A DNA stretch of 64,000 nucleotides. It comes from Escherichia phage BAU.Micro_ELP-22. Positions 3,106-25,555 of the stretch are shown here, in pieces. How positions within the stretch are numbered: position 1 is the stretch's first letter; each line of letters opens with the position of its first letter. A program made the position numbers and the translations under genes. The stretch lies in the sequence record OR699282.2; one strand, 5' to 3'. The notes under the pieces were generated by a model. It did not search any database and was not told where the DNA came from. It was given only the letters and a program-made list of their open reading frames with translations.

Positions 3106-3169
3106 AGTACTTGCAAACTAAGTTTAAAAGCGTATAATGTTTTACATCGAGAGCGGGAACACTTCCCGC
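3106..3169 (+). promoter_or_regulatory. PeSL-like promoter cassette
   Basis: AGTACT 3106-3111, TTGCAA 3111-3116, TATAAT 3133-3138, hairpin GCGGGAACACTTCCCGC 3153-3169. Confidence 0.7.
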
Positions 3170-3625: not shown

Positions 3626-3665
3626 ACTTTTTTTTACTATTCAGTACTGAAAACTATTTTTAAAA

Positions 3666-3698
3666 AGTACTTGCAAACTATGTTTAAAGGCGTATAAT
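3666..3698 (+). promoter_or_regulatory. PeSL-type promoter driving a non-coding element
   Basis: AGTACT 3666-3671, TTGCAA 3671-3676, TATAAT 3693-3698. Confidence 0.65.
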
Positions 3699-3705
3699 GT
3701 TTTAC

Positions 3706-3780
3706 ATCAGGACGGGGAACGAAATAAGTAACTTCCCGTTAAGTAGCCCAGGAGTAAGGCACACGAAAAACTCCCCTGAT
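3706..3780 (+). ncRNA. Candidate small structured RNA (repeated about 75-nt element)
   Basis: Starts at predicted TSS; closing helix ATCAGG/CCTGAT plus internal helix ACGGGGAA/TTCCCGT; no ATG; second copy at 14831-14903 with substitutions and a 2-nt indel. Confidence 0.4.
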
Positions 3781-3788
3781 AAAATAGT

Positions 3789-3816
3789 TTGACAAATGTT
3801 TTTAAAAGCGTATAAT
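3789..3816 (+). promoter_or_regulatory. sigma70-like promoter
   Basis: TTGACA 3789-3794, 16-bp spacer, TATAAT 3811-3816. Confidence 0.6.
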
Positions 3817-3848
3817 ACTTACATCAACTACTGAATGAGGGTTACAAA

Positions 3849-4537
3849 ATGAAAACTATCACTACTACTACTTTCGTTATGGATTTTTCTGAATTGAACG
3901 CAGAACAAAAAACGTCAGCTATCGAACTGGTTCGGGAACGTGAAAAAAACTCAAACGACATTTTTCTGAATTGAACGCAGAACAAAAAACGTCAGCTATC
4001 GAACTGGTTCGGGAACGTGAAAAAAACTCAAACGACAATTATTTTTCTGAAAGTGAAATTGAATACTATAAAGAAACAGTACTACCGGAATATGGCATTA
4101 ATGACGCTGAAATACAATTCAGTGGTTTTTGGTCCCAGGGTGACGGTGCATCAATCAGTACTGACCACGTTGACGCAGTGAAGTTTTTACGCAAGGTAAG
4201 AGCATTAACTAAGTATCGCTCAATCCGTCACTTGCTGAATGAAGATGATTTGGCGATGAGTGTAAAGCGTTCGCACTCCCACTACTCGCATGAGAATACT
4301 GTAAGCGGGTACATTGAATCGGCTTACACTGATTTAACCGCAAAACAAGAAACGTTAGTTAATGAGCTTGAGGAACTACTCACTGAAACTATTCGTGAAT
4401 TGTCCCGCAAGTTGTACCGTGATTTAGAGAATGCATATGAGGATCAATTCACTACTGAAAACATTACGGCACTGATTGAGGGTAACGAGTATCAATTCAA
4501 TGTTATTGATGGCGTAGTGGAATCAATCGAATATTAA
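3849..4537 (+). pseudogene. Acidic hypothetical protein gene disrupted by a 77-bp perfect tandem duplication
   Basis: ATG 3849; units 3884-3960 and 3961-4037 identical; 77 is not a multiple of 3, so frame from 3849 stops at 3972-3974 and the remainder (3971..4537) lacks an ATG; removing one unit restores one ORF. Confidence 0.7.
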
Positions 4538-4544
4538 TTTAAAA

Positions 4545-4600
4545 AGTACTTGTTTAAAGGCGTATAATACTTTATATCGAGGCGGGGAGTGGTTCCCCGC
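4545..4600 (+). promoter_or_regulatory. Degenerate PeSL cassette (shortened spacer)
   Basis: AGTACT 4545-4550, TATAAT 4563-4568 but -35/-10 spacing collapsed relative to other copies; hairpin GCGGGGAGTGGTTCCCCGC 4582-4600. Confidence 0.4.
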
Positions 4601-4619
4601 TCAAACGAGGATTAAAAAA

Positions 4620-4859
4620 ATGGCTAGTACTAAAACTTACAACGGGCACAAAAACAAAACTCATTGGAATGTAAGCCTTTGGATTAATAACGGTGAGTCA
4701 TTGTATCGGCTTGCTCAAAGTTGCATCGCACAAAGTAGAACTAAAGATATTGCAGCGGAATGTATGTACCGCAGATTAAAAGCCAACGGTACTACTACAA
4801 CGCCGGACGGATTCAAATATAGCACTACTGCGATCCGTGCGGCGATGGTTGGAATGTAA
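4620..4859 (+). CDS. hypothetical protein, early paralog family A (79 aa)
   Basis: ATG 4620, SD GAGGA; paralog of 2507..2746. Confidence 0.7.
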   Translation: MASTKTYNGHKNKTHWNVSLWINNGESLYRLAQSCIAQSRTKDIAAECMYRRLKANGTTTTPDGFKYSTTAIRAAMVGM

Positions 4860-4916
4860 TATTCAGTACTGAGATAATGGCGGGTAATAGTTCCCGCCTT
4901 TACTGAGGGTTATCTA

Positions 4917-5204
4917 ATGAGTAAAGTAATAAAGTACAATGTGTTAAGCAAATCATTGTCTATCAGTGAATGCACCGATGGTTTTTGGATGTACGATGAA
5001 ACGCGTGGCATGAATTTAGCTATGCGTGCAAAAACTGCTGAGGCGGCGTATATTCAAGCACTGGAATACTACCAGGAACGTTTAAAGGAAGTAGAAGAAG
5101 ATTATAAAAGCCTCAAAGCGAAAGTAGATCATTTCGTCGGTCAATTCGTGGAAGACAACGACGAGGACGGGCACTACTGCGACCGTTGCGGATCTTACAG
5201 TTAA
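4917..5204 (+). CDS. hypothetical protein (95 aa), C-terminal Cys pair
   Basis: ATG 4917, SD GAGGG; start context CTGAGGGTTATCTAATGAGT repeated at next gene. Confidence 0.65.
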   Translation: MSKVIKYNVLSKSLSISECTDGFWMYDETRGMNLAMRAKTAEAAYIQALEYYQERLKEVEEDYKSLKAKVDHFVGQFVEDNDEDGHYCDRCGSYS

Positions 5205-5221
5205 GTACTGAGGATTATCTA

Positions 5222-5425
5222 ATGAGTGATTTAATCGACCGCATCAAAGAGCTTGAAGAAAAAGAATTGCAGTTGATCGGGTTACGGAATAAAGTATTCC
5301 ATGATTTAGGTGGCTTTATTAATGCCTGGGATAGTGGCGATCCTGATGCGTTACCTGCTAACCGCCAGGCGATGATCAATGATGTGCGTGGTGTCTTTGA
5401 GTATGTTTTAAAGCAATTAAATTAA
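5222..5425 (+). CDS. hypothetical protein (67 aa)
   Basis: Track ORF 5186 (TTG) trimmed to ATG 5222; SD GAGGA. Confidence 0.65.
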   Translation: MSDLIDRIKELEEKELQLIGLRNKVFHDLGGFINAWDSGDPDALPANRQAMINDVRGVFEYVLKQLN

Positions 5426-5428
5426 AAA

Positions 5429-5492
5429 AGTACTTGCAATTAGTTTTCAGTACTGTATAATGGTTTACATCAAAGGGAGAAATGGTTCTCCC
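5429..5492 (+). promoter_or_regulatory. PeSL-like promoter cassette
   Basis: AGTACT 5429-5434, TTGCAA 5434-5439, TATAAT 5456-5461, hairpin GGGAGAAATGGTTCTCCC 5475-5492. Confidence 0.7.
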
Positions 5493-5511
5493 TGGTAATG
5501 AGGAAAATAAA

Positions 5512-5733
5512 ATGGCAAATATCACTACTCTTTCCCAACTGGAAGCACTGGTTAAATCTATGCGGGAACATGCCGACAAAATCGGCGTACAAGATCCAGC
5601 CGTTTGCTTCTGCGACGAATTGAATGATGATACCCTGGTAATAGCAGAAGTCCAGGACGTTTCTAACTATTCCTCGCGTTACACTGGCGGCGTAGCAAAT
5701 AAAGGTGACTTCTGTTTATACCTTACAAAATAA
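5512..5733 (+). CDS. hypothetical protein (73 aa)
   Basis: Track ORF 5482 trimmed to ATG 5512; SD GAGGAA. Confidence 0.7.
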   Translation: MANITTLSQLEALVKSMREHADKIGVQDPAVCFCDELNDDTLVIAEVQDVSNYSSRYTGGVANKGDFCLYLTK

Positions 5734-5738
5734 CAACG

Positions 5739-5768
5739 CGGGGAGATAATAACTCCCCGTTACTTTTT
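5739..5768 (+). terminator. Rho-independent terminator
   Basis: Stem CGGGGAG/CTCCCCG 5739-5759 with loop ATAATAA, then TTACTTTTTC. Confidence 0.65.
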
Positions 5769-5797
5769 CAGTACTGAATCATTTAATAGACGGATCT

Positions 5798-5869
5798 CGG
5801 CACCCGGTGGGTTAGTGACTGTTTCGTCTTGATGTAGTAATTATGCCAGTACTGGATGCACTTGTCAAC
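5798..5869 (-). repeat. Repeated intergenic element, type B
   Basis: Reverse complement: TTGACA-17-CATAAT then ACATCAAGACGAAACAGTCACTAACCCACCGGGTGC. Confidence 0.55.
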
Positions 5870-5901
5870 AACTATTTTTCAAATACTTTTTATTAAAATA
5901 C

Positions 5902-5954
5902 TTGCTAATAGTTTTTAAACGCGTATAATGTTTTGCATAGGGGAGCGGTTCCCC
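5902..5954 (+). promoter_or_regulatory. PeSL-like promoter cassette
   Basis: TTGCTA 5902-5907, TATAAT 5924-5929, hairpin GGGGAGCGGTTCCCC 5940-5954. Confidence 0.65.
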
Positions 5955-5975
5955 TGGTAACTAAGGAATAAGAAA

Positions 5976-6212
5976 ATGCTTGAACAAATCAAATCAACGT
6001 CTGCTAATGTAACGGGAACGGTATCACACTTTATTGGTGATGAATCGCGGGGCGTTCCCTATTGTGCTGTACATGTAAACACTGAGGGTAACTACTGGTT
6101 TACGGTTTACGGATCATATTCATTTGGACGGCCAGGGCATCAAAAAATTCTGGATAAAGTACAGCCAACGGGTAAAAATATCACGGCTGAAATGTTTTAT
6201 AAAAAATCATAA
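5976..6212 (+). CDS. hypothetical protein (78 aa)
   Basis: ATG 5976, SD AAGGAA. Confidence 0.7.
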   Translation: MLEQIKSTSANVTGTVSHFIGDESRGVPYCAVHVNTEGNYWFTVYGSYSFGRPGHQKILDKVQPTGKNITAEMFYKKS

Positions 6213-6276
6213 AGTACTTGATAATAGTTTTTAGTACTGTATAATATTTTACATAGCACGGGGGAGCGGTTCCCCC
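6213..6276 (+). promoter_or_regulatory. PeSL-like promoter cassette
   Basis: AGTACT 6213-6218, TTGATA 6218-6223, TATAAT 6240-6245, hairpin GGGGGAGCGGTTCCCCC 6260-6276. Confidence 0.7.
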
Positions 6277-6296
6277 TGGTAACTAAGGATAATCAA

Positions 6297-6596
6297 ATGA
6301 AAATTGCAATCATCGCCCTGGCTTTATCTGTTTCCTCTTTCGCTGTTAATGCGTCGTTAGATGTGAGTAGTGAAAAATTCATTCAGTGCACTGTTGCGAT
6401 GACCAATGAAAGTACGGGCGAGATTGTTTTAAAGGATTTAGAGATCCAGCCACAAGCATTTAAAAACGGGCCGTTCCATGAAGAAGACGAAAACGGTAGC
6501 ACAACCATTTACTATGATGCCAGTACTAAACGCGGTTCGGTCACGGTTATGGATACTGAGAAAGTAACTCATACAGGCGTTATTAATTGCCGTTGA
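6297..6596 (+). CDS. small secreted/periplasmic protein (99 aa) with N-terminal signal peptide
   Basis: MKIAIIALALSVSSFAVNA-SLD: basic N-terminus, hydrophobic core, AxA-like cleavage motif; SD AAGGA. Confidence 0.65.
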   Translation: MKIAIIALALSVSSFAVNASLDVSSEKFIQCTVAMTNESTGEIVLKDLEIQPQAFKNGPFHEEDENGSTTIYYDASTKRGSVTVMDTEKVTHTGVINCR

Positions 6597-6617
6597 TTGA
6601 TACTACGGGGTAACATC

Positions 6618-6848
6618 ATGACAGCACGAATAGTTTTACTTAACGAAAGCAGTACTACACAACTACTTAACGCCGTGCATTATGATATTGAAACGAGCGT
6701 TAATCTTATCAGTACTGTCGTACTGTTGGACACTGGAAAGGTCGCCAATGATAAAGCGATTGCAGGTATACTAACGGATCTTGAGCCTGGTAGCAGTGCA
6801 CCAATAACGTTAAATGGTAAAGTGTTTAACATTTTACTTACTGATTAA
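6618..6848 (+). CDS. hypothetical protein (76 aa)
   Basis: Track ORF 6597 trimmed to ATG 6618 (GGGG upstream); immediately follows 6297..6596. Confidence 0.55.
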   Translation: MTARIVLLNESSTTQLLNAVHYDIETSVNLISTVVLLDTGKVANDKAIAGILTDLEPGSSAPITLNGKVFNILLTD

Positions 6849-6854
6849 GTACAT

Positions 6855-6883
6855 AGCCCACCTGGTGGGCTTTTTTGTTTTTG
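6855..6883 (+). terminator. Rho-independent terminator
   Basis: AGCCCACC..GGTGGGCT stem followed by TTTTTTGTTTTTG. Confidence 0.7.
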
Positions 6884-6930
6884 TAGTATCGTAGTACTGA
6901 GATACTTTGAAAATAGTTTTAAAAAAGTAG

Positions 6931-6958
6931 TTGACATTACCGCAGAAAAGCGTAGAAT
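6931..6958 (+). promoter_or_regulatory. sigma70-like promoter
   Basis: TTGACA 6931-6936, 16-bp spacer, TAGAAT 6953-6958. Confidence 0.6.
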
Positions 6959-6965
6959 GTATTAC

Positions 6966-7027
6966 ATCAAGACGGGGAGCACTAAGTAGACCGCCAGTAA
7001 GTCGAACGAAAAACTGGACACGTCGAG
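6966..7027 (+). ncRNA. Diverged third copy of the candidate structured RNA element
   Basis: ATCAAGACGGGGAGC..AAGTAG..CAGTAAG..ACGAAAAACT resembles 3706-3780 and 14831-14903; no ORF. Confidence 0.3.
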
Positions 7028-7081
7028 AAAACTTTGATACACTAATAAACGTAAACTAAACTTTAATTGAGGATTTATAAA

Positions 7082-7564
7082 ATGGCTAATGTAAAATCAT
7101 TCATCAAAGCACTGGTAGCAAATGAAACTAACGTCGCGGCTGAGATCCTGGCTGAACTGGATAACGATACCATGAAAGCGGTACGCAATAATTTTAACAT
7201 CGCGTACAGTACTGCGAAAGAACTACAAGCAAATAAAGCGGCAGAAATTGAAGCGGCAAAGGCGGCCCGTGAAGCAGAACTACAAGCAACAATCGAAAGT
7301 ATTCAGGCGGCAGTAGTTGGATTGGATCTGGAAGTAGTTACAGAGATGGCACAAAAAGCCCTGGCGGTTAAGTATGGGGAAGACAAGCCAGAAGTAAAAG
7401 CCAAAAAATGGATTCAGGAACGCGTAGCGGTAGTACTGGACAACGGGGAAGAATATCTGATTCCGGTGCGTGGTAACTGTATTGCGGTAGTACTGGACGC
7501 GATTAACTCCAGTGGTATGACTCGCGAGGAATGGATCGAAGCTCATCGCAAAGTTGAAGCATAA
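7082..7564 (+). CDS. hypothetical protein (160 aa), Ala/Glu-rich helical N-terminus
   Basis: Track ORF 7067 trimmed to ATG 7082, SD GAGGA; followed by strong terminator. Confidence 0.7.
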   Translation: MANVKSFIKALVANETNVAAEILAELDNDTMKAVRNNFNIAYSTAKELQANKAAEIEAAKAAREAELQATIESIQAAVVGLDLEVVTEMAQKALAVKYGEDKPEVKAKKWIQERVAVVLDNGEEYLIPVRGNCIAVVLDAINSSGMTREEWIEAHRKVEA

Positions 7565-7585
7565 CAATTAAAGTACTGAATCACT

Positions 7586-7613
7586 AGCCCACCTTAAACG
7601 GTGGGCTTTTTTG
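7586..7613 (+). terminator. Rho-independent terminator
   Basis: AGCCCACC-TTAAAC-GGTGGGCT then TTTTTTG. Confidence 0.8.
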
Positions 7614-7761
7614 TGTTTATCGTTTACCAGGCCACCAGCACCGCCTAGAAACGATTCTAACGCATTAAACTGATTATCTGATGCATTGCCCTAGCTGGTG
7701 GCGTTAAGGTCGTTGTAATGCGATTGAGAGCGTTTAAAGTATTTTGCAAAAAGTAATAAAA

Positions 7762-7822
7762 AGTACTTGCACGATTAAGAGATTAGCGTATAATGTTTTA
7801 CATCGAGAGGGGGAAACGGTTC
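7762..7822 (+). promoter_or_regulatory. PeSL-like promoter cassette
   Basis: AGTACT 7762-7767, TTGCAC 7767-7772, TATAAT 7789-7794, hairpin in GAGAGGGGGAAACGGTTCTCC. Confidence 0.65.
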
Positions 7823-7849
7823 TCCTTCCAAATCAAAGGAATCAAAACA

Positions 7850-8077
7850 ATGGCTATTATCATTACTCGCGTATCTGGTACTACTGGCAACGAACAAGTA
7901 GTTGCAGTCATTACCAACAAGGAAGGTGCGGAATTGCAAAATGCAATGAATACCTGGGCCGTTAATGAGTTCGGTCAGTGGGCAAGTGTAGCATACATTG
8001 AAACCTATCAAGTGCCGTCGATTAGTTTAACTGATTTGGGCGTTGAGCGTATCCTTTGCCTGGATGAATTAAATTAA
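7850..8077 (+). CDS. hypothetical protein (75 aa)
   Basis: Track ORF 7793 (starts inside promoter) trimmed to ATG 7850; SD AAGGAA. Confidence 0.7.
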   Translation: MAIIITRVSGTTGNEQVVAVITNKEGAELQNAMNTWAVNEFGQWASVAYIETYQVPSISLTDLGVERILCLDELN

Positions 8078-8080
8078 AAA

Positions 8081-8145
8081 AGTACTTGCAAAGTAAATCG
8101 AATAAAGTATAATACATTACATCAAGGGGAGAAATGATTCTCCCC
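8081..8145 (+). promoter_or_regulatory. PeSL-like promoter cassette
   Basis: AGTACT 8081-8086, TTGCAA 8086-8091, TATAAT 8108-8113, hairpin GGGGAGAAATGATTCTCCCC 8126-8145. Confidence 0.7.
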
Positions 8146-8162
8146 ACTACAAGGAAACTAAT

Positions 8163-8306
8163 ATGAAAACTTGTCAATGTGGTCAGAAATCTATTACTGG
8201 TTTAAAGCGGGGCGTTGCTCTTTGCCAGTACCATTATAATTTACAAGTATGGGGTAAAGAATGGGCCGACCAGGTGGAAGCAGCAAAGAAAGCAAAAAGT
8301 AAGTAA
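8163..8306 (+). CDS. small Cys-containing protein (47 aa), not in ORF track
   Basis: ATG 8163 after SD AAGGAA and PeSL; MKTCQCGQ...CQYHY possible metal-binding Cys cluster; stop 8304-8306. Confidence 0.5.
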   Translation: MKTCQCGQKSITGLKRGVALCQYHYNLQVWGKEWADQVEAAKKAKSK

Positions 8307-8318
8307 AAATATTATCAC

Positions 8319-8354
8319 AGTACTATTGACATAGTTTGATAGTACTGGCATAAT
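8319..8354 (+). promoter_or_regulatory. Class-II promoter (AGTACT-TTGACA ... AGTACT-CATAAT), no stem-loop
   Basis: AGTACT 8319-8324, TTGACA 8326-8331, AGTACT 8341-8346, CATAAT 8349-8354; near-identical at 11513-11548. Confidence 0.65.
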
Positions 8355-8397
8355 AGATTTTATCAAAACGACACATATTAATTTAAGGAATACCAAA

Positions 8398-8721
8398 ATG
8401 GCTAAAACTATCATCAACACCGTTTCCCTGGCTGCAATCCGTGCAATCAATGTTGACGGTAAACGTTGGACTGATTCATATGGCAATACTTATCATTCTT
8501 GTCATGTAAGCGTTGAACTGGATAACGGTTTGAATGATCTGGCGGTTGAATCATTTACTTATGGCTATGAAGATGCATATCAACAAACGGCGTTTGATCT
8601 CTTAAAGGAATCAGTAGACGGGCTTGATACTGTTGAAACCTCCCTTACTCGTTTATGTAATGATTTGTCTATCCCGTTGCATTGTACTGTACAGAATGTT
8701 AAACGTAAAAAAGATCTTTAA
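8398..8721 (+). CDS. hypothetical protein, early paralog family C (107 aa)
   Basis: ATG 8398, SD AAGGAA; shares RWTDSxGNTYHSC and DVKRKKD with 15606..15929. Confidence 0.7.
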   Translation: MAKTIINTVSLAAIRAINVDGKRWTDSYGNTYHSCHVSVELDNGLNDLAVESFTYGYEDAYQQTAFDLLKESVDGLDTVETSLTRLCNDLSIPLHCTVQNVKRKKDL

Positions 8722-8801
8722 TTAGCTTTACTTTATGCAGATACTTTGATATAGTGTCTGCATAGGGGAAAGAAATTAAATTAACTTAAGAGGATAGTAT
8801 A

Positions 8802-9071
8802 ATGAAAAATATCAGTACTTTAATCGATGCAGGTACACATGTTCGTCGGTCTATGGTTACAACCAGTACTACAAAACAAGTAGCAAGCGGTTATCTTGTA
8901 TTTGTGCACGATGGAAAACTCCTGGAACGTTCAATCAATTTTGATGTTAAAAACAATTGCCGTTTTATTATCTTTAAGCGTGAACAATATAAAATCGATT
9001 TACCAGCGAAGCCCATAAGCGGGGCGTACAACGTGCAATCATTGTTTGAGCGTCAACCATACACCTATTAA
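8802..9071 (+). CDS. hypothetical protein (89 aa)
   Basis: ATG 8802, SD AAGAGGA; imperfect palindrome ATGCAGATA...TGTCTGCAT upstream (8736-8765). Confidence 0.65.
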   Translation: MKNISTLIDAGTHVRRSMVTTSTTKQVASGYLVFVHDGKLLERSINFDVKNNCRFIIFKREQYKIDLPAKPISGAYNVQSLFERQPYTY

Positions 9072-9122
9072 TCAAAACATCGTTAGCGGTCGATTCAGGC
9101 CGCTTATATTGGGGATTATACC

Positions 9123-9395
9123 ATGAACGTTAATCAAGTACTGAATGAGATCGAAAGCATCATTAAACCGATGAAGCGTACTGATGCTATGTTAACACCG
9201 GAAGAATGCCGCCTTTATGAGCGTTACAGCGTCGAACAAGTCCAGGCAATGGCTATGGCTACCCCAGCCGTTAAACCGCCTGAGAATGCGTTACAGGACG
9301 TTACAGGGGATTATATCATTAATCCAGTACTAGGGAAGATGGCTGCAATCACCGAAGATCAACAAGACTACTTAAGCCAGTACTTAAAAGGTTAA
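9123..9395 (+). CDS. hypothetical protein (90 aa)
   Basis: ATG 9123, SD GGGG. Confidence 0.6.
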   Translation: MNVNQVLNEIESIIKPMKRTDAMLTPEECRLYERYSVEQVQAMAMATPAVKPPENALQDVTGDYIINPVLGKMAAITEDQQDYLSQYLKG

Positions 9396-9400
9396 TTAAT

Positions 9401-9610
9401 ATGCTTACTGTACAGGATAAGATCGACATCTTAAAGGTTAATATGTATGTGATTGATGCAGTACCTGGTAAAGTATTTGCATACGATGACACTACTGTAA
9501 GCAATTTCTACTATAGCCAGGACGTGGGGGATCTTTCTGTACAGTCGGTTATTGAAAACGTAGTTAATGCAGCGTATGAGCATTTACTTTCAAATAGTAC
9601 TTGCAATTAG
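9401..9610 (+). CDS. hypothetical protein (69 aa)
   Basis: ATG 9401 tightly following previous gene; last codons overlap the -35 of the next PeSL. Confidence 0.6.
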   Translation: MLTVQDKIDILKVNMYVIDAVPGKVFAYDDTTVSNFYYSQDVGDLSVQSVIENVVNAAYEHLLSNSTCN

Positions 9611-9660
9611 TTTTTAAACGCGTATAATGTTTTACATGAAGGGGAGAAATGATTCTCCCC
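9596..9660 (+). promoter_or_regulatory. PeSL-like promoter cassette
   Basis: AGTACT 9596-9601, TTGCAA 9601-9606, TATAAT 9623-9628, hairpin GGGGAGAAATGATTCTCCCC 9641-9660. Confidence 0.7.
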
Positions 9661-24084: not shown

Positions 24085-24311
24085 AAATGATTAATTTAAC
24101 TTACCATGAATATCAAAAACGTTTAAATGCATCCAGAGATATAAGGATTCAAATATTCAATAACAAAAAATTGAAACCTGATACCAGAAGAATCAAAATC
24201 ATAGAAGCCGTGTTGTGTAACTTCCTAGGGACTAACTATCAGGAAGGTAAGGTAGAAAACTATCTTATAGAACTCATGAATAGTATTGAAAATAAATGTA
24301 AGGGTAATTAA
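24081..24311 (+). CDS. F1 paralog (76 aa)
   Basis: ATGA overlap; LGTNYQEGKV core. Confidence 0.65.
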   Translation: MKMINLTYHEYQKRLNASRDIRIQIFNNKKLKPDTRRIKIIEAVLCNFLGTNYQEGKVENYLIELMNSIENKCKGN

Positions 24312-24312
24312 C

Positions 24313-24552
24313 ATGAAAATGATTAAATTATCTCAAGCAAAATATAAAGAACGCCTGGTGAAAATTGCACCTGGACTTAATGAAATCCATCACGGAGAAG
24401 TCATTAAACACGGAAATAAGATGATTATGAAACTTGAGTTAAAGGTGGGTGCATTCATAGGAACAAACTATCAGGAGTATTATGTAGATGAATACATAAT
24501 CGCACTTAAGAGATACATTGGAAGAAAACTATATATACAAACTAAAGAATAG
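24313..24552 (+). CDS. F1 paralog (79 aa)
   Basis: Track ORF 24286 trimmed to ATG 24313; IGTNYQEYYV core; shares about 50-bp junction repeat with next gene. Confidence 0.6.
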   Translation: MKMIKLSQAKYKERLVKIAPGLNEIHHGEVIKHGNKMIMKLELKVGAFIGTNYQEYYVDEYIIALKRYIGRKLYIQTKE

Positions 24553-24581
24553 TATTGAAAATAAATGTAAGGGTATTTAAC

Positions 24582-24845
24582 ATGAAAATGATTAATTTAA
24601 GTAAAGATGAATATACCGAGCGTATGACAAAAATTACGCACAAACGTAATACAATCTATCACAACCCAGAAATTCAACACAGTAAGAAAATGATTATGAT
24701 GCGTGAGTTAAAGATGGGTGTATTCTTAGGAACAAACTATCAAGATACAGAAGTAAATCGCTTAATCGCGGAGTTACTACTGGAAATCAGAGGTAAGCTG
24801 TACTTTCATCAAATGACCCAACCACTGAGGTGTACTGATCGATGA
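24582..24845 (+). CDS. F1 paralog (87 aa)
   Basis: Track ORF 24555 trimmed to ATG 24582; LGTNYQDTEV core. Confidence 0.6.
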   Translation: MKMINLSKDEYTERMTKITHKRNTIYHNPEIQHSKKMIMMRELKMGVFLGTNYQDTEVNRLIAELLLEIRGKLYFHQMTQPLRCTDR

Positions 24846-25093
24846 ATGCGATGAATATTGTGAATAACATCAGATTAGCAGAAAGATTTGATAGAATTGG
24901 GGAAGCACTGAGAAGATACGATAAAGAATATGGTCATTTGAGCTTTTCTATAGAAAAGAGATATGAACTTGAAGCAGAGTTTAAAATGCAGAGTCTCTTA
25001 GGCACACAGTATCAAAACCAATATATTCAAACTTGGATTGATTGTTTAATCCAGACAATTTACGTAAGAAACATTAAATGCAAAATGAAATGA
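24842..25093 (+). CDS. F1 paralog (83 aa)
   Basis: ATGA overlap; LGTQYQNQYI core. Confidence 0.65.
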   Translation: MNAMNIVNNIRLAERFDRIGEALRRYDKEYGHLSFSIEKRYELEAEFKMQSLLGTQYQNQYIQTWIDCLIQTIYVRNIKCKMK

Positions 25094-25332
25094 TATACTT
25101 AACACATGATGAGTTAACAGAAAGACTAGATAAATCCAAAAGACTTACAAATAAACTTCCTCACAACACAAATCAAACCCCAGCAGAAAGGAGTGCAGAA
25201 GTTTTATTCCAAAGATTACCATACCTTCTTGGAACTGATAGGCAAGAGTATCACATTGAACGTATAATTAAATATCTCAAAATTACTATTAAGGAAAAAG
25301 TAAATGCAAATGAAATACTTAACAGACGATGA
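25078..25332 (+). CDS. F1 paralog (84 aa; start uncertain)
   Basis: LGTDRQEYHI core; close paralog of 25304..25555. Confidence 0.6.
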   Translation: MQNEMIYLTHDELTERLDKSKRLTNKLPHNTNQTPAERSAEVLFQRLPYLLGTDRQEYHIERIIKYLKITIKEKVNANEILNRR

Positions 25333-25555
25333 GTTAAAAGAACGACTAATTAAATCCAGAAAACTTACAAATCAACTTCCAAACGACACAAACAAGTCAC
25401 ATGCCGAAAGGAGTGCAGAAGTTTTATACATTCAACTCATGTACTTTCTTGGCACTGACAGACAAGAGTATTACATTGAAAGTATGCTTCGATATCTTAA
25501 ATTCTCTATAAAGGAAAAGATACATGCTCAAGAATTTAAAAATCCTAACAGTTAA
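25304..25555 (+). CDS. F1 paralog (83 aa; start uncertain)
   Basis: LGTDRQEYYI core; shares HAERSAEVL with previous gene. Confidence 0.6.
   Translation: MQMKYLTDDELKERLIKSRKLTNQLPNDTNKSHAERSAEVLYIQLMYFLGTDRQEYYIESMLRYLKFSIKEKIHAQEFKNPNS

Follow-up and report, generated by a model that had tools for sequence, protein, structure and literature searches.

[quoted passage not shown] The GC content of the window is 34.4%, and the complete genome was reported to be 373,488 bp long with a GC content of 34.34%, with termini determined by PhageTerm and assigned to the direct terminal repeat (DTR) class (PMC11465974). Alignment places position 1 of the window at position 1 of the vB_Ec-M-J and BF17 records, both of which begin at the terminus, indicating that the deposited record was rotated. 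In vB_Ec-M-J, positions 1-21525 are annotated as the DTR, and a 20,993-bp terminal repeat of fEgEco12 was confirmed via restriction digests (PMC13070987). Based on this shared terminus position and the DTR in the relatives, the gene described here sits 3.9 kb inside the left terminal repeat. The features at this locus are as follows.

3789-3816, + strand: perfect consensus sigma-70 promoter, TTGACA-16-TATAAT (12/12 match), preceding the gene
3849-3974, + strand: truncated ORF of 41 aa, starting as the N-terminus of a conserved 203-aa gene and continuing in frame +2 past the duplication to the TGA at 3972-3974
3971-4537, + strand: ORF of 188 aa, covering the remaining part of this gene (PHROG 5162 family), whose TTG start overlaps the upstream stop (TTGA) and has no Shine-Dalgarno sequence before it
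3883-3959 (equivalently 3884-3960), + strand: copy 1 of a 77-bp unit, the two copies being 100% identical
3960-4036, + strand: copy 2 of the 77-bp unit, which has no counterpart in any relative
3883-3893, + strand: first copy (R1) of an 11-bp direct repeat, ATTTTTCTGAA, re-copied at 3960-3970
4041-4051, + strand: ancestral second copy (R2) of the same 11-bp repeat

Tandem Repeats Finder reported one array at window positions 3883-4037, with a period of 77, 2.0 copies, 100% matches and 0 indels, and direct string comparison revealed that 3884-3960 and 3961-4037 are the same letter for letter, both in agreement with the identity stated in the original prediction, which was made from the sequence alone. 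On the left side the identity reaches 1 nt further (A3883 = A3960) and on the right side 0 nt, which leaves the phase of the unit ambiguous by one base. A perfect repeat of 77 nt cannot have arisen by chance within 64 kb. At the observed copy-to-copy junction AAACGAC is followed directly by ATTTTTCTGAATTG, with a microhomology of only 1 nt; the 31-mer spanning this junction is CTCAAACGACATTTTTCTGAATTGAACGCAG, and the single-copy flank sequences at the duplication are TTCGTTATGGATTTTTCTGAATTG and CTCAAACGACAATTATTTTTCTGAAAG.

The duplication breaks the reading frame after codon 37. As had been proposed, the ORF starting from the ATG at 3849 runs into a TGA at 3972-3974 after 41 codons, and deletion of one 77-bp unit restores a single ORF encoding 203 aa plus the stop, which matches the roughly 204 codons expected. 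The accompanying statement that the remainder up to 4537 has no ATG is not strictly correct, since the frame contains an ATG at 4256, besides the TTG at 3971 and further GTG or TTG codons (4178, 4232 and 4250). GAGGG at 3837-3841 is, judged from the sequence, the likely ribosome-binding site of the gene, and from the arrangement of promoter and terminal repeat we infer that the gene is expressed early. The restored 203-aa protein gave a full-length profile match to PHROG 5162 (function unknown; E = 5e-81) and has 396 homologues, most of them about 200 aa long, with the conserved motifs SGFWSQGDGAS and YSHENT, and searches of Pfam, NCBIfam, PADLOC and PDB sequences returned no significant match. 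Its AlphaFold model is confident (pLDDT 87.6), with the first predicted beta-strand at residues 8-12, and a search with this model found no convincing structural neighbour.

Several other repeats are present in the window. At 808-907, 0.8 kb from the left physical end, there are about 12 degenerate 8-bp units (CTAGACGG, CTAAACGG and CTGGATGG) with higher periods of 16, 24 and 48, which could form a protein-binding array tied to packaging or replication. Two longer tandem arrays, one at 24254-24742 (269 bp in 1.8 copies, 77% identity) and the other at 25083-25518 (220 bp in 2.0 copies, 79%), look like small genes duplicated in tandem, a short way past the terminal repeat. The DUF7249 paralogues at 2468-2746 and 4620-4859 share an identical C-terminal stretch, and near-identical promoter cassettes lie between small genes, for example at 3106-3169, 3643-3724 and 4647-4678.

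Comparison with related phage genomes, which had been put forward as a check, showed the relatives to be single-copy and the gene to be otherwise pristine. In alignments, the second copy was missing from Ecwhy_1, PBECO4, Turkey5, G17 and vB_Ec-M-J. At least 8 phages have an orthologue with 100% identity to the restored protein, and the restored gene differs from that of fEgEco12 at 2 of 612 nt (0 of 150 nt in the upstream region). At least 80% of the protein was found in one place in 189 of 191 phage records, it formed a single uninterrupted piece in all 60 phage records among the matches listed, and ten further independent assemblies contain an intact 203-aa gene. A 30-mer covering the junction had no match in INPHARED phages, IMG/VR or JGI metagenomes, and among 15 billion public proteins neither the 41-aa nor the 188-aa product was found, while the 203-aa sequence was there. 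Because the junction is seen in no other public data and the gene is otherwise pristine, the extra copy must be private to this record and have arisen later than any point substitution. On the artefact reading favoured below, one uninterrupted ORF of 203 codons is expected in the phage itself.

Read-derived contigs of the same isolate were also compared with the window. Logan contigs _14, _30 and _0 of run SRR24112079 matched it at 100% over 8318-9651, over 4832-8333 and from 40134, respectively. The proteins encoded at 8398-8721 and 8802-9071 of the window have exact matches in contig _14, and for the latter protein this contig was the sole match. The k=31 Logan assembly is fragmented in the region of DUF7249 and the promoter cassettes because of exact repeats of at least 31 nt, and when unitigs were simulated from the window at k=31, the boundaries of the Logan contigs were predicted exactly (four contig boundaries). 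By the same simulation, a duplication present in the reads would give a 669-nt unitig at 4008-4676, and a single copy would give a 905-nt unitig with the intact gene. The 175-aa edge product from 4010, predicted for a duplication in the reads, is not on record in Logan, and the products of the 533-nt and 773-nt unitigs of SRR24112079 are missing from it as well; a control with the edge product of a long Logan contig worked. Since the short contigs of this run are unindexed in Logan, the missing 175-aa product says nothing either way.

The original prediction took the short direct repeat bounding the unit as the signature of slippage, an interpretation that is not supported, given a repeat spacing of 81 bp and a junction with 1 nt in common; the third TTTTTCTGAA, placed at 4043, in fact starts at 4042. 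In the single-copy reconstruction, ATTTTTCTGAA is located at 3883 and 3964, and this spacing of 81 bp means that slippage would yield an in-frame duplication of 81 bp, not 77. The junction predicted for the 81-bp event, CGACAATT joined to ATTTTTCTGAATTG (junction sequence CGACAATTATTTTTCTGAATTGAACG), does not occur in the deposited sequence. Slippage produces a unit as long as the repeat spacing and a junction inside the shared repeat; here the unit is 77 bp against a spacing of 81 bp, and the identity at the junction continues for 1 nt on the left side and 0 nt on the right. A duplication arising directly by slippage on this repeat is therefore rejected.

For reads of at least 150 nt, SPAdes uses k values of 21, 33, 55 and 77 by default, the largest being 77. 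BAU.Micro_ELP-22 was sequenced with NovaSeq 150-nt paired reads (run SRR24112079) and assembled by SPAdes 3.15.4 with default parameters except only-assembler and careful (PMC11465974). For circular or terminally redundant phage genomes, overlaps of length k between SPAdes contig ends have been documented at 77 bp (PMC9409062) and at 127 bp (PMC5923482). According to the PhageTerm paper, a terminal repeat is usually collapsed to one copy in the assembled contig, and PhageTerm reorganises the sequence. The repeat in the window has exactly the length of the largest assembler k, 77, its copies are 100% identical, the extra copy is missing in all related genomes, and the genome, being of the DTR class, would assemble as a circle and its record was re-oriented, the raw contig end presumably lying at the duplicated 77-mer. 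We consider it very likely that the duplication is an untrimmed SPAdes k=77 contig-end overlap joined at re-orientation, that is, a finishing artefact and not phage DNA, and copy 2 (3960-4036) is the probable redundant overlap copy. The original prediction had left the choice between a recent inactivating mutation and an artefact; the evidence favours the artefact. Counting against an artefact, the authors of the genome state that contigs and coverage were manually checked (PMC11465974).

Untrimmed overlaps of this kind are found in other records of the genus. The record of Sharanji (OR545507.1), a SPAdes-assembled genome, ends with an exact copy of its first 77 bp, and that of EC.P1 (PQ657772.1) with an exact copy of its first 127 bp, so that two of the seven sibling records checked carry end overlaps; the record ends of the other five, Turkey5, Turkey3, A4, JNE01 and ECO103 4-12-1, have no overlap. 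The artefact thus survives in deposited genomes of the genus. The untrimmed overlaps of Sharanji and EC.P1 inflate the genome length, and the Sharanji paper gives the SPAdes k values as 21, 33 and 55, yet the overlap is 77 bp.

The preferred explanation, an untrimmed contig-end overlap, can be written as a series of steps. The ~21-kb direct terminal repeat would collapse in assembly, and because of this collapse SPAdes would return a circular-like contig that begins and ends with one and the same 77-base k-mer. The contig would then have been rotated to the physical left terminus, with the old end joined to the old start and neither copy trimmed, which would leave a tandem pair of identical 77-mers at a distance of 3.9 kb from the new start. 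A random break point is improbable, and the break may have been seeded by the pair of ATTTTTCTGAA repeats 81 bp apart: reads joining one 11-mer to the other, derived from PCR chimeras or a minor slippage variant, would create a branch in the k=77 graph. The 81-bp junction adds 65 novel 77-mers, which diverge from the main path at 3898-3974 and return to it at 3883-3959. The re-entry 77-mer, 3883-3959, is the duplicated unit, and a circle cut there and joined untrimmed reproduces the window sequence exactly. Such a branch would account for the length of 77, for the start of the unit at the initial base of R1 and for its end 4 nt (81 minus 77) before R2. This account assumes that the junction reads existed and that SPAdes would open a circular path at a branch vertex.

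The strongest point in favour of a biological origin is the boundary coincidence with the 11-bp repeat: had the contig broken at random, a direct repeat of 10-11 bp or longer hugging both ends of a 77-bp segment would be expected at just 0.02-0.15% of positions (up to 1% when the criteria are loose), yet a real event with a 1-nt junction leaves this coincidence unexplained too. A real and very recent 77-bp duplication, fixed in the isolate as a null or hypomorphic allele of a dispensable terminal-repeat gene, would agree with the presence of the repeat in the deposited sequence, with a left boundary placed on the 11-bp repeat, which is rare under random placement, with a genuine 63-bp duplication 11 nt away in vB_Ec-M-J and with independent frameshifts in Vequintavirus orthologues, by which loss of the gene seems tolerated. 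We nevertheless regard it as unlikely, since the unit length is exactly the assembler k, the junction homology is 1 nt and ignores the 81-bp spacing of the 11-bp repeat, the duplication is unique among all public data searched, the gene is intact in every other full-coverage record seen and in the 10 further assemblies, and the pipeline used is the one that generates the overlap artefact. If the duplication were real, the gene would give a 41-aa peptide and, at best by weak re-initiation at the TTG of TTGA, a 188-aa protein without residues 1-15, which include the first predicted beta-strand (8-12). It also seems doubtful that the 5' end of the gene is a genuine duplication hot spot, with at least part of the BAU.Micro_ELP-22 population carrying either the frameshifting 77-bp form or the in-frame 81-bp product of slippage between the ATTTTTCTGAA repeats; if it were, this duplication would, together with the fixed in-frame 63-bp form of vB_Ec-M-J, give reversible on/off or length variation of a protein expressed from a consensus sigma-70 promoter.

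A mixed population, in which a part has the 77-bp form or the in-frame 81-bp form and a minority or hybrid state was written into the consensus by the assembler or during finishing, is quite improbable in our judgement. The argument from the k=77 vertex needs a few reads with the 81-bp junction, which could be genuine slippage variants, and the region of a relative has duplicated, but PCR chimeras would serve equally well and the 81-bp junction is not in the deposited sequence. A functional split gene read by recoding, through -1 frameshifting or transcriptional slippage at A_AAA_AAC (3944-3950) or through termination-reinitiation at TTGA, is so improbable that we give it hardly any weight. 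The second ORF is in the -1 frame of the first and open from 3944, with the heptamer in the correct register, and a -1 shift there would merge both ORFs into one product with 26 aa inserted internally; however, all relatives have one uninterrupted ORF with the same A-run, the split arrangement is present in no other genome, and no stimulatory element is evident. The overlap of the two ORFs results from the duplication alone and is a by-product, not a conserved design. We therefore reject a designed role for programmed frameshifting or for translational coupling, because the split ORF is not conserved in the relatives.

If the repeat is an untrimmed overlap, as we favour, its consequences concern data quality; the biological weight is small, since an intact gene is probable. 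In OR699282.2, 77 bases of the left terminal repeat are probably spurious and, by extension, the same 77 in the right copy. The spurious bases split a conserved gene into two false ORFs, which could be misread as a natural knockout. We suggest as a rule that a perfect internal tandem repeat with the length of a common k (55, 77, 99 or 127) in a re-oriented phage genome be presumed an untrimmed overlap until the reads disagree. The case also suggests that short direct repeats may seed such break points, so that the artefact can mimic the signature of slippage.

Disruptions of this gene family are known from other phages. In Vequintavirus, the orthologues of magaca (MN850612), vB_Eco_Alma (OV101294) and Logan contig ERR12080297_1166 are split by single-base insertions, two by an additional T in a T-run homologous to TTTTT at 4042-4046 of the window and one by an additional C in the middle of the gene. 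As in the BAU.Micro_ELP-22 record, the gene is disrupted in single isolates and intact in most relatives, although the lesions are single-base insertions and not duplications; the Vequintavirus frameshifts mean either that the gene has been lost repeatedly, a loss that would then be tolerated, or that the records contain homopolymer errors. Another parallel is vB_Ec-M-J (OQ718158.1, piece L001 3854-3983), in which the 5' end of this gene carries a genuine tandem duplication of 63 bp that keeps the frame. Its unit is equivalent to window positions 3832-3894, uses a 4-nt TGAA microhomology and spans the ribosome-binding site, the start codon and the first 15 codons. Five substitutions have accumulated in the second copy, one change being ATG to GCG, and the annotated protein is 224 aa long with a 21-aa N-terminal extension. 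This genuine duplication a few bases away demonstrates that the region can duplicate. Both duplications are head-to-tail, affect the 5' end of the same gene and have a short direct repeat nearby. However, the vB_Ec-M-J unit equals the spacing of its microhomology, keeps the frame and has diverged copies, whereas the unit in the window is 4 nt short of the repeat spacing, with a 1-nt junction, identical copies and a broken frame.

With the SPAdes end-overlap artefact, the window shares an exact repeat with the length of the largest k (77 for 150-nt reads), present once per genome where the contig ends meet. It differs from this artefact in that the copies are internal and in tandem after rotation to the PhageTerm terminus, and thereby break a gene. 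The overlaps of Sharanji and EC.P1 have no flanking direct repeat, whereas the break point in the window coincides with the 11-bp direct repeat.
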